Assembly: GCF_988243305.1 (NCBI RefSeq) | Contig: NZ_OZ547136.1 | DNA: 64,000 nt | Strand: one strand, 5' to 3' | Shown here: piece after piece, positions 11,573 through 46,479 of the stretch | Layout of the letters: each line of letters begins with the position of its first letter | Numbering within the stretch: the first letter of the stretch is position 1 | Translations under genes and position numbers: made by a program | Notes under the pieces: generated by a model | Seen by the model: only the letters and a program-made list of their open reading frames with translations | What the model was told of the DNA's origin: nothing | Databases searched by the model: none

Positions 11573-13109
11573 AATAGTCATTAAACCGAATACCTATTTT
11601 GATTCTGTCTCGCTGATGTCTATCTCCACGCGTGCAAATAAACTCGACGGCGTCGAGCAGGCATTTGTGGCGATGGCGACCGAAATGAACAAAGGCGTGC
11701 TGAAGAATTTAGGGCTGCTGACGCCGGAACTGGAGCAGGCGAAAAACGGCGACCTGATGATTGTCATCAACGGCAAAGCGGGCGCAGACAACGAGCAGTT
11801 GCTGGTGGAGATTGAAGAACTGTTCAACACCAAAGCTCAAACTGGTTCACATGAAGCACGCTATGCCACTATTGCCAGCGCCAAAAAGCATATCCCGGAA
11901 AGTAACCTGGCGGTGATTTCGGTCAACGGTCTGTTTGCCGCTCGCGAAGCGCGTCAGGCGCTGCAAAACGATCTTAACGTGATGCTGTTTTCCGATAACG
12001 TCTCAGTTGAAGATGAACTGGCGCTCAAACAGTTGGCCCACGAAAAAGGGCTGCTGATGATGGGGCCAGACTGCGGTACGGCGATTATCAACGGCGCGGC
12101 GCTCTGCTTTGGTAACGCCGTGCGTCGTGGCAACATCGGTATTGTTGGCGCATCCGGCACCGGTAGCCAGGAACTGAGCGTCCGCATTCATGAATTTGGC
12201 GGCGGCGTTTCGCAACTGATTGGCACCGGCGGGCGCGACCTGAGCGAGAAAATCGGCGGCCTGATGATGCTCGACGCTATCGGGATGCTGGAAAACGATC
12301 CGCAAACTGAAATCATTGTGCTTATCTCCAAACCGCCAGCGCCTGCGGTGGCCCGCAAAGTGCTGGAACGCGCACGCGCCTGCCGTAAGCCAGTGGTGGT
12401 CTGCTTCCTCGGTCGTGGCGAAACGCCAGTGGATGAGCAGGGGCTACAGTTTGCTCGCGGCACCAAAGAGGCGGCACTAAAAGCGGTGATGCTCTCCGGT
12501 GTGAAACAAGAACATCTCGACTTGCATACCCTGAACCAGCCGTTGATTGCGGATGTGCGTGCGCGTCTGCAACCGCAGCAGAAATACATTCGTGGCCTGT
12601 TCTGCGGCGGCACGCTGTGTGACGAAACCATGTTCGCGGTGATGGAAAAACATGGCGATGTCTACAGCAACATTCAGCCCGATCCTGAATTCCGCCTGCA
12701 AGATATCAACCGCAGCATCAAACACACCTTCCTCGACTTTGGCGATGACGACTTCACCAACGGCAAGCCGCATCCAATGATTGACCCCACCAACCGTATC
12801 AGCCGCTTGATCGAAGAGGCGCGCGATCCAGAAGTGGCGGTGATCGTGATGGATTTTGTGCTCGGGTTTGGATCGCATGAAGATCCGGTCGGTTCCACCA
12901 TCGAGGCGATCAAAGAGGCGAAAGCGATCGCCGCTGCCGAAGGACGTGAGTTGATCATTCTCGCCTATGTGCTGGGTACCGATCTTGATACGCCATCGTT
13001 AGAACAACAAAGCCAGATGTTGCTTGATGCCGGAGTGATTCTGGCCAGCAGCAGCACCAATACCGGATTGCTGGCGCGTGAATTTATCTGCAAAGGGGAG
13101 GAAGCCTGA
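11562..13109 (+). CDS. yahF: FdrA-like CoA-ligase-fold protein
   Basis: 515-aa ORF; ATG at 11562 preceded by ggaggg; overlaps yahE stop by 11 nt. Confidence 0.88.
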   Translation: MSVKIVIKPNTYFDSVSLMSISTRANKLDGVEQAFVAMATEMNKGVLKNLGLLTPELEQAKNGDLMIVINGKAGADNEQLLVEIEELFNTKAQTGSHEARYATIASAKKHIPESNLAVISVNGLFAAREARQALQNDLNVMLFSDNVSVEDELALKQLAHEKGLLMMGPDCGTAIINGAALCFGNAVRRGNIGIVGASGTGSQELSVRIHEFGGGVSQLIGTGGRDLSEKIGGLMMLDAIGMLENDPQTEIIVLISKPPAPAVARKVLERARACRKPVVVCFLGRGETPVDEQGLQFARGTKEAALKAVMLSGVKQEHLDLHTLNQPLIADVRARLQPQQKYIRGLFCGGTLCDETMFAVMEKHGDVYSNIQPDPEFRLQDINRSIKHTFLDFGDDDFTNGKPHPMIDPTNRISRLIEEARDPEVAVIVMDFVLGFGSHEDPVGSTIEAIKEAKAIAAAEGRELIILAYVLGTDLDTPSLEQQSQMLLDAGVILASSSTNTGLLAREFICKGEEA

Positions 13110-14527
13110 TGAGCCAGTCACTGTTTAGCCAACCATTGAACGTTATTAACGTCGGCATCGCCATGTTTAGCGATGACCTGAAAAAGCAGCATGTAGAAGT
13201 GACTCAACTCGACTGGACGCCGCCGGGGCAGGGCAATATGCAGGTGGTGCAGGCGCTGGATAACATTGCCGATTCGCCGCTGGCAGACAAAATCGCCGCC
13301 GCTAACCAGCAGGCTTTGGAGCGCATTATCCAGTCGCATCCGGTGCTGATTGGTTTTGATCAGGCGATTAACGTGGTGCCGGGTATGACGCCGAAAACCA
13401 TTCTTCACGCCGGACCGCCGATCACCTGGGAAAAAATGTGTGGCGCGATGAAAGGCGCGGTCACCGGAGCGCTGGTGTTCGAAGGGCTGGCGAAAGATCT
13501 CGATGAGGCGGCTGAACTGGCGGCCTCCGGGGAGATCACCTTCTCGCCGTGCCACGAGCACGACTGCGTGGGTTCGATGGCGGGTGTTACCTCGGCCTCG
13601 ATGTTTATGCACATCGTAAAAAACAAAACCTACGGCAACATCGCTTACACCAATATGAGCGAGCAGATGGCGAAGATTTTGCGTATGGGCGCTAACGACC
13701 AGAGCGTGATTGACCGCCTCAACTGGATGCGCGATGTGCAGGGGCCAATGCTGCGCGACGCGATGAAAATTATCGGCGAAATCGATCTGCGCTTAATGCT
13801 GGCGCAGGCGCTGCATATGGGCGATGAATGCCATAACCGCAATAACGCCGGGACGACGTTGCTGATTCAGGCGCTGACGCAGGGGATTATTCAGGCGGGT
13901 TATTCCGTCGAGCAACAGCGCGAAGTGTTTGAGTTTGTCGCCAGCAGCGACTACTTCTCCGGCCCGACGTGGATGGCGATGTGTAAAGCGGCGATGGATG
14001 CGGCGCACGGCATCGAATACAGCACCGTGGTCACCACCATGGCGCGTAACGGCGTCGAGTTCGGCCTGCGGGTCAGCGGATTACCGGGGCAATGGTTTAC
14101 CGGTCCGGCGCAGCAGGTGATCGGGCCGATGTTTGCCGGTTATAAGCCGGAAGATTCGGGGCTGGATATCGGCGACAGCGCCATCACTGAAACCTACGGC
14201 ATTGGCGGATTTGCCATGGCGACCGCGCCCGCGATCGTCGCGCTGGTGGGCGGTACGGTGGAAGAGGCTATCGATTTCTCCCGCCAGATGCGTGAAATCA
14301 CTCTCGGTGAAAACCCCAACGTCACCATTCCGCTGCTCGGTTTTATGGGCGTGCCGTCGGCAATCGACATCACCCGCGTGGGCAGCAGCGGCATTCTGCC
14401 GGTGATCAACACCGCCATCGCCCATAAAGATGCGGGCGTCGGCATGATTGGTGCGGGCATTGTGCATCCACCATTCGCCTGCTTCGAGAAAGCCATTCTC
14501 GGCTGGTGCGAACGTTACGGCGTCTGA
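13109..14527 (+). CDS. yahG: DUF1116-family protein (YlbE paralog)
   Basis: 472-aa ORF; ATG overlaps yahF stop (ATGA). Confidence 0.88.
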   Translation: MSQSLFSQPLNVINVGIAMFSDDLKKQHVEVTQLDWTPPGQGNMQVVQALDNIADSPLADKIAAANQQALERIIQSHPVLIGFDQAINVVPGMTPKTILHAGPPITWEKMCGAMKGAVTGALVFEGLAKDLDEAAELAASGEITFSPCHEHDCVGSMAGVTSASMFMHIVKNKTYGNIAYTNMSEQMAKILRMGANDQSVIDRLNWMRDVQGPMLRDAMKIIGEIDLRLMLAQALHMGDECHNRNNAGTTLLIQALTQGIIQAGYSVEQQREVFEFVASSDYFSGPTWMAMCKAAMDAAHGIEYSTVVTTMARNGVEFGLRVSGLPGQWFTGPAQQVIGPMFAGYKPEDSGLDIGDSAITETYGIGGFAMATAPAIVALVGGTVEEAIDFSRQMREITLGENPNVTIPLLGFMGVPSAIDITRVGSSGILPVINTAIAHKDAGVGMIGAGIVHPPFACFEKAILGWCERYGV

Positions 14528-14621
14528 CCTGCAAACGCACCTTACGATCCCTTCTCCCTTCTGGGGAGAGGGGCAACCTCACTCTCATAACCCCATCACC
14601 CTCTGTAGCGGACATAACAAC

Positions 14622-15572
14622 ATGAAAGAGCTTGTGGTCGTTGCCATTGGTGGCAACAGCATTATCAAAGATAACGCCAGCCAGTCGATTGAGCATCAGG
14701 CGGAGGCGGTGAAGGCCGTCGCCGATACGGTGCTGGAAATGCTGGCTTCCGATTACGACATTGTGCTGACCCACGGCAACGGGCCGCAGGTCGGGCTGGA
14801 TTTACGCCGCGCGGAGATTGCCCACGAGCGCGAAGGGCTGCCCTTAACGCCGCTGGCGAACTGTGTGGCGGATACGCAAGGCGGCATTGGCTATCTGATC
14901 CAGCAGGCGCTGAACAACCGGCTGGCGCGTCACGGCGAGAAAAAAGCCGTCACCGTGGTGACTCAGGTGGAAGTGGATAAAAACGATCCGGGATTTGCTC
15001 ATCCCACCAAGCCCATCGGCGCATTCTTTAGTGACAGCCAGCGTGACGAATTACAAAAGGCAAATCCTGACTGGCGTTTTGTTGAAGATGCCGGACGGGG
15101 CTATCGCCGCGTGGTCGCCTCGCCGGAACCGAAACGTATTGTCGAAGCACCTGCCATTAAGGCGCTGATCCAGCAAGGCTTTGTGGTGATTGGCGCGGGC
15201 GGCGGTGGAATTCCGGTAGTGCGTACTGAAGCGGGGGATTACCAAAGCGTGGACGCGGTTATCGACAAAGATCTCTCTACCGCGCTACTGGCTCGCGAAA
15301 TTCACGCCGACATTCTGGTGATCACCACGGGCGTGGAAAAAGTGTGTATTCACTTTGGCAAGCCGCAGCAGCAGGCGCTGGATCGGGTGGATATTGCCAC
15401 CATGACCCGCTATATGCAGGAAGGGCATTTCCCACCCGGCAGCATGTTGCCAAAAATCATCGCCAGCCTGACGTTCCTGGAGCAGGGCGGTAAAGAAGTG
15501 ATTATCACCACGCCGGAATGCCTGCCTGCGGCGCTGCGTGGTGAAACGGGCACCCATATTATTAAAACGTAA
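14622..15572 (+). CDS. yahI: carbamate kinase-like protein
   Basis: ORF 14448..15572; internal ATG at 14622 gives MKELVVVAIGGNSI (amino-acid kinase fold), 316 aa. Confidence 0.9.
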   Translation: MKELVVVAIGGNSIIKDNASQSIEHQAEAVKAVADTVLEMLASDYDIVLTHGNGPQVGLDLRRAEIAHEREGLPLTPLANCVADTQGGIGYLIQQALNNRLARHGEKKAVTVVTQVEVDKNDPGFAHPTKPIGAFFSDSQRDELQKANPDWRFVEDAGRGYRRVVASPEPKRIVEAPAIKALIQQGFVVIGAGGGGIPVVRTEAGDYQSVDAVIDKDLSTALLAREIHADILVITTGVEKVCIHFGKPQQQALDRVDIATMTRYMQEGHFPPGSMLPKIIASLTFLEQGGKEVIITTPECLPAALRGETGTHIIKT

Positions 15573-15581
15573 GGACGTAAG

Positions 15582-16964
15582 ATGAAAGAAAACAATAGCC
15601 GCCGTGAGTTTCTGAGCCAGAGCGGTAAGATGGTCACCGCCGCCGCGCTGTTTGGTACCTCTGTGCCGCTCGCCCATGCGGCAGTCTCTGGCACAATCCA
15701 TTGCGACGCGAATAACACCATGAAAATCACTGACCCGCACTACTATCTCGACAACGTGCTGCTGGAAACCGGTTTTGACTACGAAAACGGTGTGGCAGTA
15801 CAGACCCGCACGGCGCACCAGACCGTAGAGATTCAGAACGGCAAAATTGTTGCCCTGCGCGAGAACAAGCAGCATCCGGACGCCACGCTGCCGCACTATG
15901 ACGCTGGCGGTAAGCTGATGCTGCCCACTACCCGCGACATGCATATTCATCTCGACAAAACCTTTTACGGCGGGCCGTGGCGCTCGCTCAATCGTCCGGC
16001 AGGCACCACCATCCAGGACATGATTAAGCTTGAGCAGAAAATGCTGCCGGAACTGCAACCGTATACTCAGGAGCGGGCGGAAAAACTGATCGATTTATTG
16101 CAATCGAAAGGCACCACCATTGCCCGCAGCCACTGCAATATCGAACCGGTTTCCGGCCTGAAAAATCTGCAAAATTTGCAGGCGGTTCTGGCGCGACGTC
16201 AGGCGGGCTTCGAGTGTGAAATTGTCGCCTTCCCGCAGCACGGTTTGCTGCTGTCGAAATCAGAACCCTTAATGCGCGAAGCGATGCAGGCGGGGGCGCA
16301 TTACGTCGGCGGGCTGGACCCGACCAGTGTTGATGGCGCGATGGAAAAATCCCTCGACACCATGTTCCAGATTGCGCTGGACTACGACAAAGGCGTTGAT
16401 ATTCACCTGCACGAAACCACTCCGGCAGGCGTGGCAGCCATCAATTATATGGTTGAAACGGTGGAGAAAACGCCGCAACTGAAGGGCAAGCTGACCATCA
16501 GCCACGCCTTTGCGCTGGCAACGCTCAATGAGCAACAGGTAGATGAACTGGCGCACCGGATGGCGGCGCAGCAAATTTCTATCGCCTCGACGGTGCCGAT
16601 TGGCACGCTACATATGCCGCTTAAACAACTGCACGACAAAGGCGTAAAAGTGATGACCGGCACCGACAGCGTTATCGACCACTGGTCGCCTTACGGCCTG
16701 GGCGACATGCTGGAAAAAGCCAATCTCTACGCGCAGCTCTATATTCGTCCTAACGAACAGAATTTGTCCCGTTCGCTGTTTTTAGCCACTGGCGATGTAT
16801 TGCCGCTCAACGAAAAAGGCGAGCGCGTCTGGCCCAAAGCGCAGGATGACGCCAGCTTTGTGCTGGTGGACGCCTCCTGTTCCGCCGAGGCGGTGGCGCG
16901 TATCTCGCCGAGAACGGCGACGTTCCATAAAGGGCAACTGGTGTGGGGGAGTGTGGCAGGTTGA
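15582..16964 (+). CDS. yahJ: amidohydrolase/deaminase with twin-arginine signal
   Basis: 460-aa ORF; N-terminal SRREFLSQSG...AHA Tat-type signal; metal-dependent hydrolase motifs. Confidence 0.9.
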   Translation: MKENNSRREFLSQSGKMVTAAALFGTSVPLAHAAVSGTIHCDANNTMKITDPHYYLDNVLLETGFDYENGVAVQTRTAHQTVEIQNGKIVALRENKQHPDATLPHYDAGGKLMLPTTRDMHIHLDKTFYGGPWRSLNRPAGTTIQDMIKLEQKMLPELQPYTQERAEKLIDLLQSKGTTIARSHCNIEPVSGLKNLQNLQAVLARRQAGFECEIVAFPQHGLLLSKSEPLMREAMQAGAHYVGGLDPTSVDGAMEKSLDTMFQIALDYDKGVDIHLHETTPAGVAAINYMVETVEKTPQLKGKLTISHAFALATLNEQQVDELAHRMAAQQISIASTVPIGTLHMPLKQLHDKGVKVMTGTDSVIDHWSPYGLGDMLEKANLYAQLYIRPNEQNLSRSLFLATGDVLPLNEKGERVWPKAQDDASFVLVDASCSAEAVARISPRTATFHKGQLVWGSVAG

Positions 16965-17923: not shown

Positions 17924-18910
17924 ATGATGAATAAACGTTTTGTTATCAATATGGTGTCTTCGCTGTTATTAGGCGCTGCGCTAATTTCTGCGCCGCTCCA
18001 GGCAGCGGAAAAAGTCGTGGTGAATATCTCTAAAGTCGATGGTATGCCGTGGTTTAATCGCATGGGCGAAGGTGTGGTTGAGGCGGGTAAAGCCTTTGGT
18101 GTTAATGCGTCACAGGTGGGGCCTTCAAGTACTGATGCTCCGCAACAGGTTAAAATTATTGAGGATTTAATCGCCCGTAAGGTTAATGCAATTACAATTG
18201 TGCCAAACGATGCCAACGTGCTGGAACCGGTATTCAAAAAAGCGCGAGATGCCGGAATTGTGGTTCTGACCAACGAATCCCCCGGTCAGCCAAGTGCTAA
18301 CTGGGATATCGAAATCATTGATAACGAAAAATTTGCCGCTGAATATGTTGAGCATATGGCGAAACGCATGGGTGGCAAGGGCGGCTATGTGATTTACGTG
18401 GGTAGTTTGACCGTGCCGCAGCATAACTTATGGGCTGACTTGCTGGTGAAATACCAGAAAGAGCATTACCCGGATATGCATGAAGTTACCCGCCGCATGC
18501 CGGTTGCCGAGAGTGTGGATGACTCACGTCGTACCACACTGGACCTCATGAAAACCTATCCTGACTTGAAAGCGGTTGTCTCCTTTGGTTCAAACGGTCC
18601 GATTGGCGCGGGACGTGCAGTGAAAGAGAAACGGGCGAAAAATAAAGTCGCAGTCTATGGCATGATGATCCCTTCACAGGCGGCATCACTGATTAAAAGT
18701 GGTGATATCACCGAAGGGATTACTTACGATCCGGCCTCTGCAGGTTACGCACTCGCGGCCGTCGCCAGCACGTTGCTGAAGGGTGAAGAGATCAAACCTG
18801 GATTAGAAATGGAGAATCTCGGTAAGGCCGACGTAGATATGGATAAGCGAATTATCCGTTTCCATAAGGTATTACTGGTCAACAAAGACAATATCGACTC
18901 ACTTTATTAA
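17924..18910 (+). CDS. periplasmic sugar-binding protein, LsrB/RbsB-like (CUT2 ABC family)
   Basis: 328-aa ORF with signal peptide ...APLQA|AEK; C-terminus VLLVNKDNIDSLY resembles LsrB-type proteins. Confidence 0.8.
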   Translation: MMNKRFVINMVSSLLLGAALISAPLQAAEKVVVNISKVDGMPWFNRMGEGVVEAGKAFGVNASQVGPSSTDAPQQVKIIEDLIARKVNAITIVPNDANVLEPVFKKARDAGIVVLTNESPGQPSANWDIEIIDNEKFAAEYVEHMAKRMGGKGGYVIYVGSLTVPQHNLWADLLVKYQKEHYPDMHEVTRRMPVAESVDDSRRTTLDLMKTYPDLKAVVSFGSNGPIGAGRAVKEKRAKNKVAVYGMMIPSQAASLIKSGDITEGITYDPASAGYALAAVASTLLKGEEIKPGLEMENLGKADVDMDKRIIRFHKVLLVNKDNIDSLY

Positions 18911-18920
18911 TCCATTTCTT

Positions 18921-18945
18921 CGGGGCGAAAGCCCCGATTCTTATT
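18921..18945 (+). terminator. intercistronic hairpin (attenuator/terminator-like)
   Basis: cggggc-gaaa-gccccg perfect stem with GNRA loop followed by attcttatt, between the binding-protein and ATPase genes. Confidence 0.5.
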
Positions 18946-18958
18946 GCCAGGGGATGCT

Positions 18959-20443
18959 ATGGAAACCTTCCTTTCCCTTCGTCATATCAACAAAACGTTT
19001 CATGCCACGCGAGCGCTGCGCGATGTTTCTCTCGACTTTATGTCGGGTGAGGTGCACTGCCTTGCCGGGCAAAACGGCTGTGGTAAATCGACGTTGATTA
19101 AAATTATGTCCGGTGTTTATCGCCCGGATGAGGGGGCGGAAATTACGCTTGGTGGGAAAAACTGGTCAAAGCTGACACCCGCCGCTTCGGTGGCGCAGGG
19201 GATTCAGGTGATTTATCAGGACCTCTCTTTATTTCCTAACCTGAGTGTCTGGGAGAATATCGCCGTGAATCACTATCACCACGGTCTGTTTGTTAACCGC
19301 CGTCGTCTGCGTGAGGTGGCGCAGGCGGCAATGACCAGTATTAACGTCACATTGCCACTGGATACGCTCGTTTCTGAGCTTTCAATTGCCCGCTGTCAGC
19401 TGGTGGCAATTTGCCGTGCACTGGCGCAGGACGCACGGTTGATCGTGATGGATGAACCAACCGCTTCGCTGACCCATCAGGAAGTGCAAGGGTTATTACA
19501 GGTGGTGCATCAATTGCGGGAACGCGGGATCTGCGTGGTCTTCGTCAGTCATCGTCTGGAAGAAGTGATGGAAGTTTCCGACCGTATTTCAGTGCTGAAA
19601 GATGGTGAGCTGGTCGGGACCTTTCCGGCCGCAGAGATGACCACAAAACAACTCAGTTTTCTGATGACCGGCCAGGAGTTCGAATATCAGGTACGAGAGT
19701 TGTGGCAGGGAAAATCCAGCCCCCCGGTGCTGGAGGTGCGTAATTTAAGTCGTCATGGGGAATATCAAAATATTAACTTGCGGGTGGAAGCGGGCGAAGT
19801 GGTGTCGATTGTTGGCCTGCTTGGTGCGGGGCGCACGGAATTATGTCTGAGTCTGTTTGGTATGACCCGACCGGATGCTGGTGAGATCCTCATCAACGGT
19901 CAGCCGGTTACACTGCATAGTAACCAGGACGCCATCCGCCACGGTATTGGTTATGTTTCGGAAGATCGCATGTCGCGCGGTTTGGTGATGGCGCAATCTA
20001 TTGAAGACAACATCATTAGCACTGTTTTTCACAAGGTAAAAGATCGCTTCGGCTTTCTGAGTGAAGCTAAAGTGCGTGACCTGGTGGACAGGCTAATCAA
20101 GGCATTGACCATCAAAGTCTCTGACCCACATCTCCCGGTGAATACGCTTTCCGGGGGTAACGCGCAGCGAGTATCGATCGCCAAATGGCTGGCGATTGGG
20201 CCACGACTGTTGATTCTCGATAGCCCGACTGTCGGTGTTGATATCGCCAACAAAGCAGGAATATACGGCATTATCAGCGATCTGGCGGCTCATGGCATTG
20301 CGGTATTGATGATCTGCGATGAAATTGAAGAAGCGTGGTATCAAAGCCACCGGATTTTGGTAATGCAAAAAGGTCAGATCACCCATAGCTTCCTGCCTGA
20401 CAGCAGTTCTCAGGCCAGGATTGCGGAGGTGGTAAATGGCTGA
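18959..20443 (+). CDS. sugar ABC transporter ATP-binding protein (two nucleotide-binding domains)
   Basis: ORF 18944..20443; ATG at 18959 (METFLSL); Walker A GQNGCGKST; duplicated NBD typical of RbsA/LsrA. Confidence 0.85.
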   Translation: METFLSLRHINKTFHATRALRDVSLDFMSGEVHCLAGQNGCGKSTLIKIMSGVYRPDEGAEITLGGKNWSKLTPAASVAQGIQVIYQDLSLFPNLSVWENIAVNHYHHGLFVNRRRLREVAQAAMTSINVTLPLDTLVSELSIARCQLVAICRALAQDARLIVMDEPTASLTHQEVQGLLQVVHQLRERGICVVFVSHRLEEVMEVSDRISVLKDGELVGTFPAAEMTTKQLSFLMTGQEFEYQVRELWQGKSSPPVLEVRNLSRHGEYQNINLRVEAGEVVSIVGLLGAGRTELCLSLFGMTRPDAGEILINGQPVTLHSNQDAIRHGIGYVSEDRMSRGLVMAQSIEDNIISTVFHKVKDRFGFLSEAKVRDLVDRLIKALTIKVSDPHLPVNTLSGGNAQRVSIAKWLAIGPRLLILDSPTVGVDIANKAGIYGIISDLAAHGIAVLMICDEIEEAWYQSHRILVMQKGQITHSFLPDSSSQARIAEVVNG

Positions 20444-23738: not shown

Positions 23739-24554
23739 ATGATATCATTAAAAGCTCCGCACAATAATTTGATGCCATATACGCAACAAAGCATACTTAA
23801 TACAGTAAAAAACAATCAGTTACCAGAGGATATCAAAAGCTCCCTGGTTTCCTGTGTCGATATATTCAAGGTTTTGATTAAACAATATTATGATTATCCT
23901 TATGATTGTCGTGATGATTTAGTCGATGACGACAAACTCATTCATCTCATGGCTGCCGTACGAGACTGTGAGTGGTCAGACGATAACGCACTCACCATAA
24001 ATGTGCAGTTTAATGATTTCCCAGGATTTTATGACTGGATGGATTACCCTGATCACCCGGTTAAGTTTGTTTTTCGCATACTTGAAAATCAAAAAGGGAC
24101 AGTTTGGGTATATGACCAGGATGATGCGTTTCTTGATATTAAAGCAAATGTGCAGGCTGGACGCTTTACCGGGCTTAAGAAATTAGTGCAGTTTATCGAT
24201 TCAGTGCGAACAGATTGCAAATGTATTCTTCTTGAACACCATATGCCTTTGCTGAGACTTTTCCCTAAAGGGAAAGAGTGTATGCATGTGGAAAAATGGC
24301 TTCGCGAAATGTCGTCTATTCCGGAGACCGACGCACCCATTAAGCAGGCGCTTGCGCATGGATTATTATTACACTTAAAAAATATCTACCCTGTTTTTCC
24401 TGAATCACTGGTGAGGTTATTGCTCTCTGTTCTGGACGTAAAAACATACAGAGATGATGCGCGATTAAATCAATGGATATCTAATAGAGTCCAGGAATTA
24501 GGTGACAGATATTATCCTGTAAATAAGCACGTTAAAATCCGCTACACTCTTTAG
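23739..24554 (+). CDS. yahL: uncharacterized protein
   Basis: 271-aa ORF in AT-rich low-GC context; synteny. Confidence 0.8.
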   Translation: MISLKAPHNNLMPYTQQSILNTVKNNQLPEDIKSSLVSCVDIFKVLIKQYYDYPYDCRDDLVDDDKLIHLMAAVRDCEWSDDNALTINVQFNDFPGFYDWMDYPDHPVKFVFRILENQKGTVWVYDQDDAFLDIKANVQAGRFTGLKKLVQFIDSVRTDCKCILLEHHMPLLRLFPKGKECMHVEKWLREMSSIPETDAPIKQALAHGLLLHLKNIYPVFPESLVRLLLSVLDVKTYRDDARLNQWISNRVQELGDRYYPVNKHVKIRYTL

Positions 24555-24966
24555 TTCAGAAAGGGTTCCACCTGCGAGTTGTTATTCCACCAGAGAGTGA
24601 ATCGCAAAGCAGGTAATCATTTCATCTGTATATCCGTATGCCAAATGGCATTCCACCGCCTTTTTCGCCGATATTTTGTTGTGATCGGCGACGCTTCGCT
24701 TAAAAAAGCATCAGCAGTGGTTTCGCAGCTATACAGTGTATAAAAAATGATCTCATGCAGATGTTTTGTGAATGTGTGGGTTGACATTCATATGAAAAAA
24801 ATCATAATTCCATCATGTTTGTGTGGGGTCTTTTCTGTATCTTACGCATCGCACTCAAGCCTGACAGAAAATATGCTGTAAGGCTCATATCAAAAACCGC
24901 CATTAGCTCATCAGGAAGAGCAGACGACAACCAGGATTGTTGTATGGTACGGGGTTCGAGGCCTCG

Positions 24967-25212
24967 ATGGCGGTCCAACTTTTCATAACTCTTCTGAATC
25001 AGATCCCCTTATTATCATCCCTGCAAAGTGGAACATTGCCATTGTTTGGCTATTCAGGACGGGTCAGAGCAATGAAAAAAGCCCACACAGGGGAGAGTGG
25101 GCTGAAATGGGAAGCTAAAGACTCAAGTAAACTTATCGGAAATAAGGACCACGCATTACGGGGGCTATCATCGCCGATGGTCGGGATTCGGCAAATCAGG
25201 TTGATTACGTAG
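24967..25212 (+). CDS. yahM: small uncharacterized protein
   Basis: ORF 24937..25212; ATG at 24967 gives MAVQLFITLLNQ, 81 aa; synteny. Confidence 0.65.
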   Translation: MAVQLFITLLNQIPLLSSLQSGTLPLFGYSGRVRAMKKAHTGESGLKWEAKDSSKLIGNKDHALRGLSSPMVGIRQIRLIT

Positions 25213-25228
25213 AGAGTAAATTATCTGC

Positions 25229-25900
25229 TCACCGCTGCGTCACCCCTTCGTAAATCAGGCGTAGCGCGAATACACCAATAATTGCACCAATAACCCGACT
25301 GGCAACGCGTTGCATACGCCCATAAGCACGACGCACTGCGGGCAAAGAAAACGCCTGACTAAGAAAGACTCGCCAGATAATTGATGCGAGTACAATCCCC
25401 GCCCAGGCCATTAAACGTGCCCATGTTGGTGTTTCGGCATTTAATGTTACTGAGAAAATACTGATAAAAAATAAAACGGTTTGCGGGTTAGAGAGATCGG
25501 TAATTAATCCGCGGCGAAAAAAAACATACCAGGGGGCGTTAATCGGTTGTTGTAGTGTGCTCATTTGCGGTGTTGACTGGCGGCGCATGCTGCACCACGC
25601 AAACCATAAGAGATAAGCGCCGCCGACGATTCTGATAAGCGAAAAAATCTCCTCGCACTGCGTAATTAACGTCGCCAAACCAAACAAACCCAACCCGGAA
25701 TAAAACGCATCGCCCAGCGCCACGCCCAGCCCGGTCAGCACCCCTGCGCGTCGACCGGAAGCCAGGCTGGTTTGTACTACCACAAAGAGATTGGCTCCCG
25801 GATTAAAAAAAGTAATCACGAACAGTCCTACGGTCAGGTAAACGGCGTGCAAAGGATCCATAGTGATTTCATCCATAAATAAGTGAAGTAACTTCATCAT
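25229..25900 (-). CDS. yahN: LysE/RhtB-family amino-acid exporter
   Basis: 223-aa hydrophobic ORF; synteny. Confidence 0.88.
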   Translation of the reverse strand: MMKLLHLFMDEITMDPLHAVYLTVGLFVITFFNPGANLFVVVQTSLASGRRAGVLTGLGVALGDAFYSGLGLFGLATLITQCEEIFSLIRIVGGAYLLWFAWCSMRRQSTPQMSTLQQPINAPWYVFFRRGLITDLSNPQTVLFFISIFSVTLNAETPTWARLMAWAGIVLASIIWRVFLSQAFSLPAVRRAYGRMQRVASRVIGAIIGVFALRLIYEGVTQR

Positions 25901-31876: not shown

Positions 31877-33763
31877 ATGTCTTTTAGCGAATTTTATCAG
31901 CGTTCGATTAACGAACCGGAGCAGTTCTGGGCCGAGCAGGCCCGGCGTATTGACTGGCAGACGCCCTTTACGCAAACGCTCGATCACAGCAATCCGCCGT
32001 TTGCCCGTTGGTTTTGTGAAGGCCGAACCAACTTGTGTCACAACGCTATCGACCGCTGGCTGGAGAAACAGCCAGAGGCGCTGGCGCTGATTGCCGTCTC
32101 TTCGGAAACAGAAGAAGAGCGCACCTTTACCTTTCGTCAGCTGCATGACGAAGTGAACGCGGTGGCCTCAATGTTGCGTTCATTGGGCGTGCAGCGTGGC
32201 GATCGGGTGCTGGTGTATATGCCGATGATTGCCGAAGCGCATATTACTCTGCTGGCCTGCGCGCGCATTGGCGCTATTCACTCGGTGGTGTTTGGTGGAT
32301 TTGCCTCGCACAGCGTGGCGGCGCGAATTGATGATGCTAAACCGGTGCTAATTGTCTCGGCTGATGCCGGAGCGCGCGGTGGCAAAATCATTCCCTATAA
32401 AAAATTACTCGACGATGCGATAAGTCAGGCGCAGCACCAGCCACGCCATGTTTTGCTGGTGGATCGCGGGCTGGCGAAAATGGCACGCGTCAGCGGGCGG
32501 GATGTCGATTTCGCGTCGTTGCGCCATCAACACATCGGCGCGCGGGTACCGGTGGCGTGGCTGGAATCCAACGAAACCTCCTGCATTCTCTACACTTCCG
32601 GCACGACCGGCAAACCTAAAGGCGTGCAGCGTGACGTCGGCGGATATGCGGTGGCGCTGGCGACCTCGATGGACACTATTTTTGGCGGCAAAGCGGGCGG
32701 TGTGTTCTTTTGTGCTTCGGATATCGGCTGGGTGGTGGGGCATTCGTATATCGTCTACGCGCCGCTGCTGGCGGGGATGGCGACTATCGTTTACGAAGGA
32801 TTGCCGACCTGGCCGGACTGCGGCGTGTGGTGGAAAATCGTCGAGAAATATCAGGTGAGCCGAATGTTCTCAGCGCCAACCGCCATTCGCGTGCTGAAAA
32901 AATTCCCTACCGCCGAAATTCGCAAACACGATCTCTCGTCGCTGGAAGTGCTCTATCTGGCGGGGGAGCCGCTGGACGAGCCGACCGCCAGTTGGGTGAG
33001 CAATACGCTGGATGTGCCGGTCATCGACAACTACTGGCAGACCGAATCCGGCTGGCCGATTATGGCGATTGCTCGCGGTCTGGACGACAGGCCGACGCGT
33101 CTGGGAAGCCCCGGCGTGCCGATGTATGGCTATAACGTGCAGTTGCTTAATGAAGTCACCGGCGAACCGTGTGGCGTCAACGAGAAAGGGATGCTGGTGG
33201 TGGAAGGGCCGCTGCCGCCGGGGTGTATTCAGACCATCTGGGGCGACGACGACCGCTTTGTGAAGACGTACTGGTCGCTGTTTTCCCGCCCGGTGTACGC
33301 CACCTTTGACTGGGGCATCCGTGACGCTGACGGTTATCACTTTATTCTCGGGCGCACTGACGATGTAATTAACGTTGCCGGGCATCGGCTGGGGACGCGC
33401 GAGATTGAAGAGAGTATCTCCAGTCATCCGGGCGTTGCCGAAGTGGCGGTGGTTGGGGTGAAAGATGCGCTGAAAGGGCAGGTGGCGGTGGCGTTTGTCA
33501 TTCCGAAAGAGAGCGACAGTCTGGAAGACCGAGACGTGGCGCACTCGCAAGAGAAGGCGATTATGGCGCTGGTGGACAGCCAGATTGGCAACTTTGGTCG
33601 CCCGGCGCACGTCTGGTTTGTCTCGCAATTGCCGAAAACGCGATCCGGAAAAATGCTGCGCCGCACGATCCAGGCAATTTGCGAAGGACGCGATCCTGGG
33701 GATCTGACGACCATTGATGATCCTGCGTCATTGGATCAGATCCGCCAGGCGATGGAAGAGTAA
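31877..33763 (+). CDS. prpE: propionyl-CoA synthetase
   Basis: 628-aa ORF with acyl-CoA synthetase motifs (YTSGTTGKPKG). Confidence 0.95.
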   Translation: MSFSEFYQRSINEPEQFWAEQARRIDWQTPFTQTLDHSNPPFARWFCEGRTNLCHNAIDRWLEKQPEALALIAVSSETEEERTFTFRQLHDEVNAVASMLRSLGVQRGDRVLVYMPMIAEAHITLLACARIGAIHSVVFGGFASHSVAARIDDAKPVLIVSADAGARGGKIIPYKKLLDDAISQAQHQPRHVLLVDRGLAKMARVSGRDVDFASLRHQHIGARVPVAWLESNETSCILYTSGTTGKPKGVQRDVGGYAVALATSMDTIFGGKAGGVFFCASDIGWVVGHSYIVYAPLLAGMATIVYEGLPTWPDCGVWWKIVEKYQVSRMFSAPTAIRVLKKFPTAEIRKHDLSSLEVLYLAGEPLDEPTASWVSNTLDVPVIDNYWQTESGWPIMAIARGLDDRPTRLGSPGVPMYGYNVQLLNEVTGEPCGVNEKGMLVVEGPLPPGCIQTIWGDDDRFVKTYWSLFSRPVYATFDWGIRDADGYHFILGRTDDVINVAGHRLGTREIEESISSHPGVAEVAVVGVKDALKGQVAVAFVIPKESDSLEDRDVAHSQEKAIMALVDSQIGNFGRPAHVWFVSQLPKTRSGKMLRRTIQAICEGRDPGDLTTIDDPASLDQIRQAMEE

Positions 33764-33768
33764 GGTAT

Positions 33769-35065
<1,297 letters not shown>

Positions 35066-35066
35066 C

Positions 35067-35125
<59 letters not shown>

Positions 35126-35202
35126 CCACTACCCACTGTTTTTACACCGATAATTTTTCCCCCACCTTTTTGCACTCATTCATATAAAAAATATATTTCC
35201 CC

Positions 35203-35216
35203 ACGAAAACGATTGC
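35203..35216. promoter_or_regulatory. putative PurR operator in the codBA promoter
   Basis: acgaaaacgattgc resembles the PurR box ACGCAAACGTTTGC, about 70 nt upstream of the codB GTG. Confidence 0.55.
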
Positions 35217-35284
35217 TTTTTATCTTCAGATGAATAGAATGCGGCGGATTTTTTGGGTTTCAAACAGCAAAAAGGGGGAATTTC

Positions 35285-36544
35285 GTGTCGCAAGATAACA
35301 ACTTTAGCCAGGGGCCAGTCCCGCAGTCGGCGCGGAAAGGGGTATTGGCATTGACGTTCGTCATGCTGGGATTAACCTTCTTTTCCGCCAGTATGTGGAC
35401 CGGCGGCACTCTCGGAACCGGTCTTAGCTATCATGATTTCTTCCTCGCAGTCCTCATCGGTAATCTTCTCCTCGGTATTTACACTTCATTTCTTGGTTAC
35501 ATTGGCGCAAAAACCGGCCTGACCACTCATCTTCTTGCTCGCTTCTCTTTTGGTGTTAAAGGCTCATGGCTGCCTTCACTGCTGCTGGGCGGCACCCAGG
35601 TTGGCTGGTTTGGCGTTGGCGTGGCGATGTTTGCCATTCCGGTGGGCAAGGCAACTGGGCTGGATATTAATTTGCTGATTGCCGTTTCCGGTTTACTGAT
35701 GACCGTCACCGTCTTCTTTGGCATTTCGGCGCTAACGGTTCTTTCGGTGATTGCAGTTCCGGCTATCGCCTGTCTTGGCGGTTATTCCGTGTGGTTGGCC
35801 GTTAACGGCATGGGCGGCCTGGACGCATTAAAAGCGGTCGTTCCCGCACAACCGTTAGATTTCAATGTCGCGCTGGCGCTGGTTGTGGGGTCATTTATCA
35901 GTGCGGGCACGCTCACCGCTGACTTTGTCCGGTTTGGTCGTAATGCCAAACTGGCGGTGCTAGTGGCGATGGTGGCCTTTTTCCTCGGCAACTCGTTGAT
36001 GTTTATTTTCGGTGCAGCGGGCGCGGCGGCACTGGGGATGGCGGATATCTCTGATGTGATGATTGCTCAGGGTCTGCTGCTGCCTGCGATTGTGGTGCTG
36101 GGGCTGAATATCTGGACCACCAACGATAACGCACTTTATGCGTCGGGTTTAGGTTTCGCCAACATTACCGGTATGTCGAGTAAAACCCTTTCGGTGATTA
36201 ACGGTATTATCGGTACGGTCTGCGCATTATGGTTGTATAACAATTTTGTCGGCTGGCTGACCTTCCTTTCGGCAGCTATTCCTCCGGTAGGGGGCGTGAT
36301 CATCGCTGACTATCTGATGAACCGTCGCCGCTATGAGCACTTTGCGACCACGCGTATGATGAGTGTCAATTGGGTGGCGATTCTGGCGGTCGCCTTGGGG
36401 ATTGCCGCAGGCCACTGGTTACCGGGAATTGTTCCGGTCAACGCGGTATTAGGTGGCGCGCTGAGCTATCTGATCCTTAACCCGATTTTGAATCGCAAAA
36501 CGACGGCTGCAATGACGCATGTGGAGGCTAACAGTGTCGAATAA
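35285..36544 (+). CDS. codB: cytosine permease
   Basis: 419-aa multi-TM ORF, GTG start; synteny. Confidence 0.95.
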
Positions 36545-37817
36545 CGCTTTACAGACAATTATTAACGCCCGGTTACCCGGCAAAGAGGGGCTGTGGCAGA
36601 TTCATCTGCTGGACGGAAAAATCAGCGCCATTGATGCGCAATCCGGGGTGATGCCCATAACTGAAAACAGCCTGGATGCCGAACAAGGTTTAGTTATACC
36701 GCCGTTTGTGGAGCCACATATTCACCTGGACACCACGCAAACCGCCGGACAACCGAACTGGAATCAGTCCGGCACGCTGTTTGAAGGCATTGAACGCTGG
36801 GCCGAGCGCAAAGCGTTATTAACCCATGACGATGTGAAACAACGCGCCTGGCAAACGCTGAAATGGCAGATTGCCAACGGCATTCAGCATGTGCGTACCC
36901 ATGTCGATGTTTCGGATGCAACGCTGACTGCGCTGAAAGCAATGCTGGAAGTGAAGCAGGAAGTCGCGCCGTGGATTGATCTGCAAATCGTCGCCTTCCC
37001 GCAGGAAGGGATTTTGTCGTATCCCAACGGTGAAGCGTTGCTGGAAGAGGCGTTACGCTTAGGGGCAGACGTAGTGGGGGCGATTCCGCATTTTGAATTT
37101 ACCCGCGAATACGGCGTGGAGTCGCTGCATAAAACCTTCGCCCTGGCGCAAAAATACGACCGTCTCATCGACGTTCACTGTGATGAGATCGATGACGAGC
37201 AGTCGCGCTTTGTCGAAACCGTTGCTGCCCTGGCGCACCGTGAAGGAATGGGCGCGCGAGTCACCGCTAGCCACACTACGGCAATGCACTCCTATAACGG
37301 GGCGTATACCTCACGCTTGTTCCGTTTGCTGAAAATGTCCGGTATTAACTTTGTCGCCAACCCGCTGGTCAATATTCATCTGCAAGGACGTTTCGATACG
37401 TATCCAAAACGTCGCGGCATCACGCGCGTTAAAGAGATGCTGGAGTCCGGCATTAACGTCTGCTTTGGTCACGATGATGTCTTCGATCCGTGGTATCCAC
37501 TGGGAACGGCGAATATGCTGCAAGTGCTGCATATGGGGCTGCATGTTTGTCAGTTGATGGGCTACGGGCAGATTAACGACGGCCTGAATTTAATCACCCA
37601 CCATAGCGCCAGGACGTTGAATTTGCAGGATTACGGCATTGCCGCCGGAAACAGCGCCAACCTGATTATCCTGCCGGCTGAAAATGGGTTTGATGCGCTG
37701 CGCCGTCAGGTTCCGGTGCGCTATTCGGTACGTGGCGGTAAGGTGATTGCCAGCACCCAACCAGCACAAACCACCGTATATCTGGAGCAGCCAGAAGCCA
37801 TCGATTACAAACGGTAA
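36534..37817 (+). CDS. codA: cytosine deaminase
   Basis: ORF 36519..37817; GTG at 36534 gives [16 protein letters not shown] (427 aa); overlaps codB by 11 nt; amidohydrolase HxH motif. Confidence 0.94.
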
Positions 37818-37835
37818 TTTCCTCTGCGTTGAAGA

Positions 37836-37857
37836 GCCACTGACCTGTGTCAGTGGC
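37836..37857. terminator. bidirectional hairpin between convergent codA and cynR
   Basis: gccactgac-ctgt-gtcagtggc perfect 9-bp stem. Confidence 0.55.
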
Positions 37858-38756
37858 TACCGTGATTCATGCCCGCCAACATCCGCACATTCTTCCAACG
37901 CCATGTGTAAAAATGCCTTCGCGGCGGCTGTCTGCCAGCTATTTTTCCGCCGCAATAAAACCGCCGTTCTCTCCAGTAACGGTGGGGCAAGGGATATAGC
38001 TTTAAGCCCGTCATGTTGTGTGGCAATCGCTGCTGGCAACAATGTGGAAAGGGAAGTGCGGCGAATCAGCTCCAGAACCGCGCTAATTGAGTTCGCCTCA
38101 ATGACCACCTGTGGATGTAGCCCCGCTTTCTCGCAGTAGTGGTCAATTTGCTCTCTGGTGGCAAATTCCGCGCTGAGCAGGACCAGTTTTTCATCATGCA
38201 AGCGACTCAACGCCACCTGTTCACAGGCAGCCAGCGGATGATGTTGCGCCACGACTAACGCTAAACTTTCTGTCAGTAAAGGAATTGCCTCCAGCTCCGG
38301 CGAATGCACAGGCGCGAAGGCAATCCCAACGTCCAACTCGTCGCGACAAAGCAGATCTTCGATTTTCTCCTGCGACATTTCCTGTAGCTGGAGCGTGATG
38401 CCGGGGTAGCGCGCATAGAAATCCGCCATTAAAGGGCCGATAAAGTAGCTTGTAAAGGTGGGAGTGACGGCGATACGCAGCGATCCTCGCGTCAGATCGG
38501 CAACATCATGAATCGCCCGTTTACCCGCCCCCAGTTCCTGTAACGCCCGGCTGGCGTACTGTCGCCAGACTTCTCCTGCATCAGTGAGACGAATCGTTCG
38601 CCCGCTACGGTCAAACAGCGGCACGCCTAAACTCTCCTCTAACTGGCGAATCTGCTGGGAAAGTGCTGGCTGGGAGACGTGCAACGCACTGGCTGCACGG
38701 GTGAAGCTGCCATGTTCAGCCACGGCAAGAAAATAATTGATATGTCGAGAGAGCAT
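37857..38756 (-). CDS. cynR: LysR-family activator of the cyn operon
   Basis: ORF 37857..38780; ATG at 38756 gives [22 protein letters not shown]. Confidence 0.93.
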
Positions 38757-38865
38757 TCGCCAACCTATAAGTAAACCCAATAGAACTCATCATAAATGAG
38801 TCTTTTACCTTATGACAATCGGCGAGTAGTCTGCCTCTCATTCCAGAGACAGACAGAGGTTAACG

Positions 38866-39525
38866 GTGAAAGAGATTATTGATGGATTCCTTAAATTCCA
38901 GCGCGAGGCATTTCCGAAGCGGGAAGCCTTGTTTAAACAGCTGGCGACACAGCAAAGCCCGCGCACACTTTTTATCTCCTGCTCCGACAGCCGTCTGGTC
39001 CCTGAGCTGGTGACGCAACGTGAGCCTGGCGATCTGTTCGTTATTCGCAACGCGGGCAATATCGTCCCTTCCTACGGGCCGGAACCCGGTGGCGTTTCTG
39101 CTTCGGTGGAGTATGCCGTCGCTGCACTTCGGGTATCTGACATTGTGATTTGCGGTCATTCCAACTGTGGCGCAATGACCGCTATTGCCAGCTGCCAGTG
39201 CATGGACCATATGCCTGCCGTCTCTCACTGGCTGCGTTATGCCGATTCAGCCCGCGTCGTTAATGAGGCGCGCCCGCATCCCGATTTACCGTCAAAAGCT
39301 GCGGCGATGGTACGTGAAAACGTCATTGCTCAGTTGGCTAATTTGCAAACTCATCCATCGGTGCGCCTGGCGCTCGAAGAGGGGCGGATCGCCCTGCACG
39401 GCTGGGTCTACGACATTGAAAGCGGCAGCATCGCAGCTTTTGACGGCGCAACCCGCCAGTTTGTGCCACTGGCCGCTAATCCTCGCGTTTGTGCCATACC
39501 GCTACGCCAACCGACCGCAGCGTAA
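38866..39525 (+). CDS. cynT: beta-class carbonic anhydrase
   Basis: 219-aa ORF, GTG start; CSDSR and HSNCG zinc-ligand motifs. Confidence 0.94.
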
Positions 39526-39537
39526 CCTTATTTTTAA

Positions 39538-40026
<489 letters not shown>

Positions 40027-40058
40027 CAACCATGCGCGACCATCAAAAGACGTTCACG

Positions 40059-41213
40059 ATGCTGCTGGTTCTGGTGCTGATTGGTCTTAATATGCGACCA
40101 CTGCTCACCTCCGTCGGACCACTGCTACCGCAATTGCGTCAGGCGAGTGGAATGAGCTTTAGCGTGGCAGCCCTGTTGACCGCTCTACCGGTGGTTACCA
40201 TGGGCGGGCTGGCGCTGGCCGGAAGCTGGCTTCATCAGCATGTCAGCGAACGTCGCAGCGTCGCCATCAGTTTGTTACTGATTGCCGTCGGTGCATTGAT
40301 GCGTGAGCTTTACCCCCAAAGTGCGCTGCTGCTTAGCAGCGCACTGCTTGGTGGAGTGGGGATCGGCATCATTCAGGCAGTGATGCCTTCGGTAATTAAG
40401 CGGCGGTTTCAGCACCGTACGCCACTGGTGATGGGGCTGTGGTCCGCGGCTCTGATGGGCGGCGGTGGACTTGGTGCCGCCATTACGCCCTGGTTAGTTC
40501 AACATAGCGAAACCTGGTATCAAACACTCGCCTGGTGGGCGCTGCCTGCCGTTGTTGCGCTCTTTGCCTGGTGGTGGCAAAGCGCCCGCGAGGTCGCCTC
40601 TTCTCACAAGACAACAACCACTCCGGTTCGCGTGGTATTTACTCCCCGCGCCTGGACGCTGGGTGTTTACTTCGGTCTGATTAACGGCGGTTACGCCAGC
40701 CTGATTGCCTGGTTACCCGCTTTCTATATTGAGATTGGTGCCAGCGCGCAGTACAGCGGTTCCTTGCTGGCATTGATGACGCTTGGGCAAGCAGCAGGGG
40801 CATTGCTGATGCCTGCTATGGCTCGCCATCAGGATCGGCGGAAACTTTTGATGCTGGCGCTGGCGTTACAACTGGTGGGGTTCTGCGGCTTTATCTGGCT
40901 GCCGCTGCAATTGCCGGTATTGTGGGCAATGGTGTGTGGATTAGGTCTGGGCGGCGCATTTCCGCTCTGTTTGCTGCTGGCGCTCGATCACTCTGCGCAA
41001 CCGGCTATTGCTGGCAAACTGGTGGCGTTTATGCAGGGGATCGGTTTTATCATCGCCGGGCTTGCTCCCTGGTTTTCTGGCGTGCTGCGTAGTATCAGTG
41101 GCAATTACTTGATGGACTGGGCGTTTCATGCGCTGTGCGTCGTTGGGCTGATGATCATAACCCTGCGTTTTGCACCAGCACGTTTTCCGCAGCTGTGGGT
41201 CAAAGAGGCATGA
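40059..41213 (+). CDS. cynX: MFS cyanate transporter
   Basis: ORF 40032..41213; ATG at 40059 gives MLLVLVLIGLNMRPL (384 aa). Confidence 0.9.
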   Translation: MLLVLVLIGLNMRPLLTSVGPLLPQLRQASGMSFSVAALLTALPVVTMGGLALAGSWLHQHVSERRSVAISLLLIAVGALMRELYPQSALLLSSALLGGVGIGIIQAVMPSVIKRRFQHRTPLVMGLWSAALMGGGGLGAAITPWLVQHSETWYQTLAWWALPAVVALFAWWWQSAREVASSHKTTTTPVRVVFTPRAWTLGVYFGLINGGYASLIAWLPAFYIEIGASAQYSGSLLALMTLGQAAGALLMPAMARHQDRRKLLMLALALQLVGFCGFIWLPLQLPVLWAMVCGLGLGGAFPLCLLLALDHSAQPAIAGKLVAFMQGIGFIIAGLAPWFSGVLRSISGNYLMDWAFHALCVVGLMIITLRFAPARFPQLWVKEA

Positions 41214-41254
41214 TGCGACGCTTGTTTCGCCAGATAATGGAAGAGTGAATTATT

Positions 41255-41283
41255 GTCGGATGTGCCCAATGGCGCATCCGACA
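41255..41283. repeat. REP-like palindrome between cynX and lacA
   Basis: tgtcggatgtgcccaatggcgcatccgaca, same REP type as downstream of prpE. Confidence 0.7.
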
Positions 41284-41300
41284 TTTATTTCAGTGCTTAT

Positions 41301-41912
41301 TTAAACTGAAGGCTCAACTTTATAATCTTTGTAATAATAGTGCTTATCCCGGTCGTTTATTTCGCGAATAACCCGACAAGGAACGCCAGCAGCCACGACG
41401 TTTGGTGGAATGTCTTTTGTGACGACACTACCCGCGCCAATAACAGAATTATCCCCGATGGTGACGCCTGGATTAATAACCACATGACTTCCGATCCAGA
41501 CGTTATTGCCAATCGTTATCGGAAAAGAGTACATCTCACCGTTTTTTCTTAATTCATGGTGTACCGGGTGTCCCGTAACGGAAAGAGTAACGTTGGGTGC
41601 AATCAGTACGTTGTCACCGATTGTTACCGTGTAGTCATCGACAATGGTTAAATTAAAATTTGCATAAAAATTGCGGCCTATATGGATGTTGGAACCGTAA
41701 GAGAAATAGACGGGAGGTTCTACCCAGGCGTTTTCCCCTACCGTGGCAAACATTTCTTTAAGCAGGCTTTCTCTTTTTTCAACTTCTGATGGATGCGAGT
41801 GATTAAACTCATACATTAACGTTTTCCCACGAAGTCTTTTTTCCGGTAAGCCTTCGCACATATCGGTAAATAGCTTGCCTGCTTTTATTCTTTCGGTCAT
41901 TGGCATGTTCAT
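41301..41912 (-). CDS. lacA: galactoside O-acetyltransferase (hexapeptide repeat)
   Basis: ORF 41301..41963; ATG at 41912 gives MNMPMTERI (203 aa). Confidence 0.94.
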   Translation of the reverse strand: MNMPMTERIKAGKLFTDMCEGLPEKRLRGKTLMYEFNHSHPSEVEKRESLLKEMFATVGENAWVEPPVYFSYGSNIHIGRNFYANFNLTIVDDYTVTIGDNVLIAPNVTLSVTGHPVHHELRKNGEMYSFPITIGNNVWIGSHVVINPGVTIGDNSVIGAGSVVTKDIPPNVVAAGVPCRVIREINDRDKHYYYKDYKVEPSV

Positions 41913-41977
41913 TGCGATCATTCCGTCCTGATATGTTGGTCGGATAAGGCGCTCGCGCCGCATCCGACATTGATTGC

Positions 41978-43276
<1,299 letters not shown>

Positions 43277-43282
43277 TTATTA

Positions 43283-46479
<3,197 letters not shown>

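Follow-up and report, generated by a model that had tools for sequence, protein, structure and literature searches.

In this study, we have analysed a window of 64,000 nucleotides of E. coli DNA, in which prpBCDE is followed in order by IS621, codBA, cynR, cynTSX and lacAYZ (from open reading frames and from the RefSeq annotation of near-identical DNA), and we propose that a paralogue of the prpE 3' end, now diverged, makes up the core of the spacer between cynX and lacA. According to this reading, to which as a whole we give a probability of about 0.65, the segment was copied within Escherichia by illegitimate or REP-associated recombination, is now likely to act as a terminator, and is proof against the insertion sequence IS621. 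The comparison involves the following features.

31877-33763: prpE open reading frame, with stop TAA at 33761-33763 and last codons ATG GAA GAG TAA
33743-33798, plus strand: copy A (the source type), the last six codons of prpE, TAA and the first REP after prpE
40032-41213, plus strand: cynX coding sequence, the longest open reading frame, with the same 1182-nt form in the PGAP annotation
41208-41222, plus strand: half-REP GCATGATGCGACGCT, 14/15 identical to the left arm of a Z2 REP, overlapping the cynX stop codon and found in all spacer alleles
41214-41300: cynX-lacA spacer of 87 nt, bounded by two stop codons, TGA of cynX (41211-41213) and that of lacA on the minus strand (41301-41303)
41228-41283, plus strand: copy B, 56 nt within the spacer comprising a diverged prpE 3' end (CGCCAG-ATA-ATGGAAGAG-TGA) and a symmetric REP hairpin, recognised by alignment and flank statistics
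41237-41248, plus strand: pseudo gene end ATGGAAGAG-TGA, outside cynX (whose reading frame ends at 41213) and in another frame
41301-41912, minus strand: lacA, convergent with cynX, stop codon at 41301-41303

Resemblance of the spacer to the end of prpE

The two copies are similar without gaps from CGCCAG (33743 and 41228) to CATCCGACA (33798 and 41283), at a constant offset of 7,485 nt, with 47 of 60 positions identical over a wider frame. The edges of the similarity are sharp, only 1-2 of 10 positions matching further upstream and 6 of 30 downstream. A first-pass annotation had pointed to a close parallel between the sequences that follow cynX and prpE, and the two 45-mers it quoted are indeed present, exactly and once each (41239-41283 and 33754-33798; 37/45 identical). 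The parallel is real and specific, but its extension to the last codons holds for prpE only: cynX stops at 41211-41213, and the look-alike ATGGAAGAG-TGA lies 33 nt downstream in a different frame. What had been taken for a similar gene-end context is, rather than a property shared by the two gene ends, a copied piece of prpE outside cynX. Likewise, the assignment of both sites to the same REP type stands in the sense that they are two copies of one atypical palindrome, and not in the sense of a widespread subtype.

Both palindromes lie at gene ends, as is typical for REPs, and their arms (GTCGGATG/CATCCGAC) are similar to those of Y-type REPs, so that the resemblance might amount to general family likeness with chance matches in the flanks. 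This is hardly credible, since the reading is refuted by a control of the flanks and by the number of copies per genome. In the 29 nt directly 5' of the palindrome, 22 positions match (binomial p from about 1e-8 to 5e-7). We scored this flank against 216 REP-like sites, defined by G[CT]CGGAT[GA], from 533 kb of E. coli sequence; more than 13 of 29 matches were found only at prpE ends (21-22) and at the allele itself, the 205 other sites all scoring 13 or less against the 22 of copy B (p about 1e-8). Furthermore, a BLAST search of 5,426 complete E. coli genomes with a 75-nt unit gave at most two matching places per genome, the spacer and the prpE end. Taken together, the flank match, the control scores and the copy number establish that the similarity is real, goes beyond that of the REP family, and is specific to these two loci.

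The conservation of PrpE indicates the direction of copying. The tail QIRQA-M/I-E/G-E, followed by the stop, is conserved in E. albertii and Citrobacter, which (E. albertii and two Citrobacter species) are the close relatives among the matches listed in a PrpE search of genome contigs, and its QIR core is kept in some beta-proteobacteria. PrpE of E. albertii ends in ...QIRQAMGE, with a hairpin as in E. coli directly after the stop codon; in the two Citrobacter species it ends in ...QIRQAIEE, with unrelated DNA past the stop. As the tail is a native, conserved coding sequence of PrpE, comparison of the sequences establishes that copying ran from a prpE end to the spacer and not the reverse. The motif ATTTAT, which follows the hairpin in the window and also follows prpE in E. 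albertii, was set aside as ambiguous, because in E. albertii it may equally derive from the 3' end of lacZ.

The spacer palindrome and its putative role

The palindrome of copy B, its tail and the two canonical REPs of the window used as controls are located as follows.

41254-41283, plus strand: hairpin of copy B, in which 41254-41266 pairs with 41271-41283 to form a 13-bp stem, closed by the loop CAAT
41284-41290, plus strand: T-rich tail TTTATTT, directly 3' of the hairpin, from a consensus terminator scan
33810-33844, plus strand: Z2-type REP, 35/37 to consensus, with tail ATCAGGCCT followed by AC, an occupied IS621 target whose leftover AC is at 35124-35125
41939-41969, plus strand: Y-type REP between lacA and lacY, in inverted orientation, 29/35, with the same orientation as the hairpin of copy B

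In its context, the hairpin folds with -29.2 kcal/mol (z = -6.6), and 98% of the stem cells are paired across 8 variants. The hairpins of copies A and B differ at 6 of 30 positions, four of them in the 4-nt loop and two in the stem, where both changes (C-G to U-G and U-G to C-G) keep the pairing. The stem has stayed intact despite a divergence of about 22%. A covariation test on the 8 variants found pairing kept and no double compensatory changes, and for this reason the conservation of the stem does not amount to proof of selection.

By strict criteria the spacer feature is an atypical REP. It is a stable, GC-rich, imperfect palindrome within the range of about 30-40 nt, extragenic and placed between the convergent cynX and lacA. 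As in the REPs and BIMEs of E. coli, a GC-rich palindrome of about 30 nt with Y-like arms is found at gene 3' ends or between convergent genes. Unlike in those elements, both arms look like the head of the Y unit, the asymmetric TTATC(C/A)GGCCTAC tail is missing, and, instead of many dispersed copies, there are two loci at most per genome, and the palindrome brings prpE coding sequence along. The match to the Y consensus is 21-22 of 35 in either orientation for the spacer hairpin and 25 of 35 for the prpE copy, as against 35/37 and 29/35 for the Z2 and Y controls from the same window. The hairpin is nearly symmetric (GTCGGATG(C/T)G...CGCATCCGAC), and in 533 kb of E. coli DNA no palindrome of this form was found apart from those of the prpE end and the spacer. 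The asymmetric GTAG/CTAC at one end is also lacking in copy B, whose stem is preceded by GTGA...ATTATT and followed by ATTT; the prpE copy of K-12 has GTAG, overlapping its TAG stop. In strain 536, a canonical Y REP begins at a GTAG that overlaps the prpE stop.

These features bear on the idea that a RAYT (TnpA-REP tyrosine transposase) mobilised the REP together with about 27 nt of its upstream flank. RAYTs are thought to spread REPs (PMC2817692), and the copied unit stops exactly at the 3' edge of the palindrome. Nevertheless, the GTAG/CTAC tetranucleotide is missing in copy B, where GTGA stands at 41245-41248, there are just two copies per genome, no precedent was found for transduction of a flank, and the left junction resembles an illegitimate join made beside a half-REP. 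We regard mobilisation by a RAYT as improbable, and retain recombination of the illegitimate or REP-associated kind.

As to the role of the hairpin, REPs protect the 3' ends of mRNAs and act as terminators (summarised in PMC1525189), and the functions proposed here for the spacer hairpin are drawn by analogy from these established ones. On the plus strand, the GC-rich hairpin is directly followed by TTTATTT and looks like an intrinsic terminator for cynTSX, as far as can be inferred from such a signal; the consensus-based scan found 2 sites against 1.9 in shuffled sequences. The hairpin formed on the minus strand is weaker, at -22.2 kcal/mol, and its tail, AAUAAUUCAC, has no U-run. Most likely, then, the hairpin and its tail would end and stabilise the cynTSX transcripts, and the convergent lac mRNA would receive from copy B a 3' hairpin that may serve as a stabiliser at most. 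A scan of Rfam related the prpE hairpin and its Z2 pair (33769-33843) to naRNA4 (RF02564), the RNA of REP325-type BIMEs, with a score of 53.2 bits, which falls short of the gathering threshold (59.5). The copy between cynX and lacA, which is a single hairpin, differs in this respect and gave no match in that scan.

Spacer alleles and IS621 targets

At least three alternative fillings of this spacer exist in E. coli, that of the window among them. The window type (at least 95% identity) is present in about 614 of 5,426 genomes, including the reference strains IAI39 and SMS-3-5 (both of group F) and 042 (group D), and the K-12 type (at least 80% coverage) in 3,069. A third type, without lacA, is found in 532 of the 5,426; it is 86% identical to the window type, and lacY follows cynX after 78 nt. 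The BIME-1 type occurs in strains of groups A and E and in the B2 strain 536. In K-12 and O157, a filling of 102 nt, made of a collapsed Y REP, a linker and the inverted Z1 REP gtaggcctgataagcgcagcgtatcaggca, stands between the same flanks (…gcgacgcttgtt and …ttaaactga), and strain 536 carries the uncollapsed Y-linker-Z1 form, with IS1397 in the Y loop and with cynRTSX missing. The alternative alleles have both flanks in common, and their breakpoint is located 5-6 nt past the half-REP at 41208-41222. Two other alignments of the alleles were rejected. Homology of the K-12 loop 'ggctaatg' to 'gcccaatg' of the window was discarded because the alleles of O157 and 536 revealed the K-12 sequence to be a collapsed Y REP within a Y-L-Z1 unit. 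The notion that the K-12 spacer starts with a complete, decayed Z2 REP, and would thereby be ancestral, was dropped because local alignment backs only the 15-nt left arm, in all alleles. In the literature searched, we found no description of the prpE-tail copy or of this series of spacer alleles.

Comparison of the alleles also bears on the possibility that the look-alike end belongs to a functional gene, a 12-codon frame MMRRLFRQIMEE (41210-41248) translationally coupled to cynX via ATGA and providing a genuine gene-end context. Its ATG (41210) shares bases with the cynX stop, and AAGAGG is found a short distance upstream. Against this, the Shine-Dalgarno-like AAGAGG is separated from the ATG by 1-4 nt, the peptide is wholly different past residue 6 in the K-12 and O157 alleles, residues 9 and 12 differ in the lacA-less allele, and no homologue or annotation was found in any annotated record compared. 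As the peptide is not conserved between alleles, the frame is probably non-coding, and such a gene is very improbable in comparison with a remnant of the prpE end.

The number of REPs varies also between prpE and codB, being 2 in the window and in strains 7/2, IAI39 and SMS-3-5, 4 in K-12 and 536, and about 11 in 042. Many of the Z2 tails in this interval read ATCATGCCTAC or ATTATGCCTAC and are imperfect IS621 sites. IS1397, another insertion sequence that targets REPs, is found in REPs of the region at the codA-lacA junction of 536 (record positions 18889-20237) and between cynR and codA in IAI39 (24373-25721). Between codA and cynR, about 318 bp of K-12 (record positions 7452-7769) are missing from the window (37814-37834) and from strain 7/2, probably representing another presence/absence polymorphism of a BIME.

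IS621 and its target in REPs were reportedly described by Choi et al. in 2003. The element of the window is located as follows.

33845-35123, plus strand: IS621, 1279 bp, with transposase open reading frame at 34036-35016 and, at its left end, the bridge-RNA region, with ATCGGGCCT at 33908-33916

Its transposase matches PF01548 (DEDD RuvC-like) and PF02371 (Transposase_20), CT is found on both sides of the element within the target ATCAGGC-CT-AC, as published, and RefSeq genomes with identical DNA have it annotated as IS621. The element thereby agrees with the IS110-family pattern of a non-coding left end that harbours the bridge RNA and of a CT-flanked insertion lacking inverted repeats. The prpE/IS621 junction is common to 296 genomes. 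Directly after the right end there is a tandem duplication of 7 nt (acccact-acccact, 35124-35137), present also in strains S56 and 2013C-3264; acccact is single in the empty sites of K-12, 7/2 and SMS-3-5.

It had been pointed out that the prpE copy adjoins the REP that received the insertion, and that the spacer after cynX lacks a second REP carrying atcaggcct. Both observations are confirmed, the former by the position of the Z2 REP (33810-33844) immediately before IS621. That the REP with atcaggcct is the one that IS621 can target is likewise correct and is already published: 129 of 173 genomic insertion sites of IS621 are ATCAGGCCTAC, which together with ATCGGGCCTAC accounts for 96.2% of insertions, and the bridge RNA sets the specificity through its target-binding loop, an rG:dT pair being tolerated at position 4 (Durrant et al. 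2024, PMC11208160). Nevertheless, it is the 11-nt tail with its CT core, and not the stem subtype, that decides, and a single pair of loci, which had been taken to illustrate which subtype is targetable, shows nothing alone.

Natural junctions have the same preference. Among 57 left junctions of IS621 in metagenome contigs, with 35 distinct flanks, 15 flanks are Z1, 11 Z2, one Y, two a Y variant ending in ATCCGACCT and six other. All 35 end in CT and 22 in ATCAGGCCT; 26 of the 35 are Z-type REPs, and equal use of REPs lacking the motif was not found in this mapping by subtype. The Y-type tails ATCCGGCCT and ATCCGACCT are occasionally used; with ATCCGACCT this occurs in REPs that have the same gtcgg/ccgac stem.

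The spacer of the window is no such target, since its symmetric palindrome lacks an ATC(A/G)GGC-CT-AC tail on either strand and IS621 cannot land in it. The best 11-mers of 41214-41300 have 4 mismatches to the target on either strand, none being within 3 and none having the CT core. The K-12-type spacer, in contrast, carries a perfect site (0 mismatches) on the minus strand. IS621 does land beside the prpE copy, in the Z2 REP, and in K-12-type spacers, in the Z1 REP, and in the BIME-1 allele its insertion is expected at GTAGGCCTGAT. With a 170-nt junction query, IS621 was found in the site of the K-12-type spacer in 44 genomes. A count of 1,263 genomes obtained with a 100-nt lacA/IS621 junction query was rejected, because the REP and the left end of the element alone reach 80% coverage.

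The window is not closely matched as a whole, the best match of positions 33600-43300 to any complete E. coli genome being at most 98.1%. The prpE/IS621 junction is 100% identical in ten listed genomes, including isolates from pig, fox and human, one of which, strain C11, has the K-12-type spacer; the cyn-lac part is closest (98.9%) to strain 7/2, of the window type. As the two parts have different closest strains, the region looks mosaic. Strain 7/2 has an IS200C transposase gene between lacY and lacZ (record positions 11699-12157) and an internal stop in codA.

Gene losses and the origin of the copy

Several gene losses have their endpoints at the REPs of this region. In the window, hairpins of the same orientation (41254-41283 and 41939-41969) bracket lacA. 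In the lacA-less type, the hairpin of the spacer runs on into ttgattgcttaagcg, the right flank of the lacA-lacY REP, a junction that, judged from its sequence, is apparently the signature of a 686-bp deletion from REP to REP, in which lacA was lost between the two hairpins. We found no paper describing this loss of lacA in 532 of 5,426 genomes. In strain 536, loss of cynRTSX leaves a hybrid Y REP. In E. albertii NBRC 107761, prpE and its hairpin abut the stop of a lacZ orthologue (88% amino acid identity; record positions 8900-12104), and codBA, cynRTSX, lacA and lacY are absent. In E. coli 2013C-3264 (record positions 9600-15830), the order is prpE, IS621 (plus), codA and codB inverted, IS621 (minus) and lacA, and cynRTSX is absent; the arrangement amounts to an inversion bounded by IS621, with a deletion, at the REP sites of the region. 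In the lacY gene of the window (41978-43231, minus strand), an in-frame stop at codon 306 (42314-42316; …VRIIG*SFATS…) truncates the lactose permease of this strain to 305 of 417 residues.

Scars of recombination between REPs are known from the F'128 amplification and from lambda bio junctions, cited in a passage of PMC1525189. The region resembles these cases in that REPs of the same orientation are the endpoints of natural rearrangements (the loss of lacA, and that of cynRTSX in 536) and in that the number of BIME copies after prpE varies, from 2 to about 11 REPs. It differs in that the prpE-tail copy is a gain of sequence, its left end does not lie in a full REP, and no reciprocal product was found.

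In the reading we favour, the copied piece would start among the final codons of prpE, reach to where its hairpin ends on the 3' side, and would have arisen by illegitimate or REP-associated recombination inside an Escherichia genome. Two candidate routes may be considered. Either the segment between the prpE tail and a point just beyond cynX would have been duplicated in tandem and then collapsed, or the template would have been switched at REP hairpins. At the left junction of the copy, 5-6 nt after the half-REP, there are 1-3 nt of microhomology. Intermediates of a duplication were not found, and the deletion product that would join prpE to lacA through the repeat was seen in 0 of 5,426 genomes. 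The divergence of about 22% is high for an event within the species, and therefore the copy may be old or foreign.

A foreign origin would make the spacer core a remnant of the prpE 3' end of a horizontally acquired block (lac or codBA-cyn), which entered by homology at one end, anchored in prp, and by an illegitimate join at the other, so that the prpE tail and REP of recipient or donor were left as a direct repeat. The copies do form direct repeats bracketing the 7.4-kb codBA-cynR-cynTSX block, their divergence of about 22% exceeds that usual within E. coli, and the gene content varies by lineage, with the prpE-REP abutting lacZ in E. albertii and with 536 lacking cyn. However, no donor arrangement was found, prpE of Citrobacter being followed by unrelated DNA; the state of E. 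albertii is simpler as a deletion, its lacZ without lacY being degenerate; and the BIME-1-type allele has no prpE tail, which means that the block does not have the copy as its fixed border. We consider acquisition with such a block unlikely, and copying within Escherichia remains the best explanation.

A more specific version of the latter is that the 56-nt unit is a REP hairpin spread together with adjacent coding sequence by hairpin-mediated template switching, and not by a transposase, the resulting alleles setting where IS621 lands and which rearrangements follow. This version we put forward as doubtful. If it were true, the alleles would decide the landing of IS621, the loss of lacA (about 10% of E. 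coli) and the IS621-bounded inversion or loss of codBA and cyn.

The copied prpE tail is a modest case of the well-known plasticity driven by REPs, an ordinary scar of rearrangement, and the entry of IS621 into REPs, on which the first-pass annotation had laid its stress, is already settled experimentally, so that this point adds nothing new. The REPs of this region are the endpoints of real gene losses, namely of lacA (532 of 5,426 genomes), of cynRTSX (in 536) and, in E. albertii, of the genes from codBA to lacY. The 3' end of the lac operon, a textbook locus, is not uniform in E. coli: its spacer has unrelated forms, one of which would be the fossil copy of the end of another gene. As a natural pair of alleles with and without an IS621 site, these forms would be useful in studies of bridge-recombinase targeting or of genome change driven by REPs.
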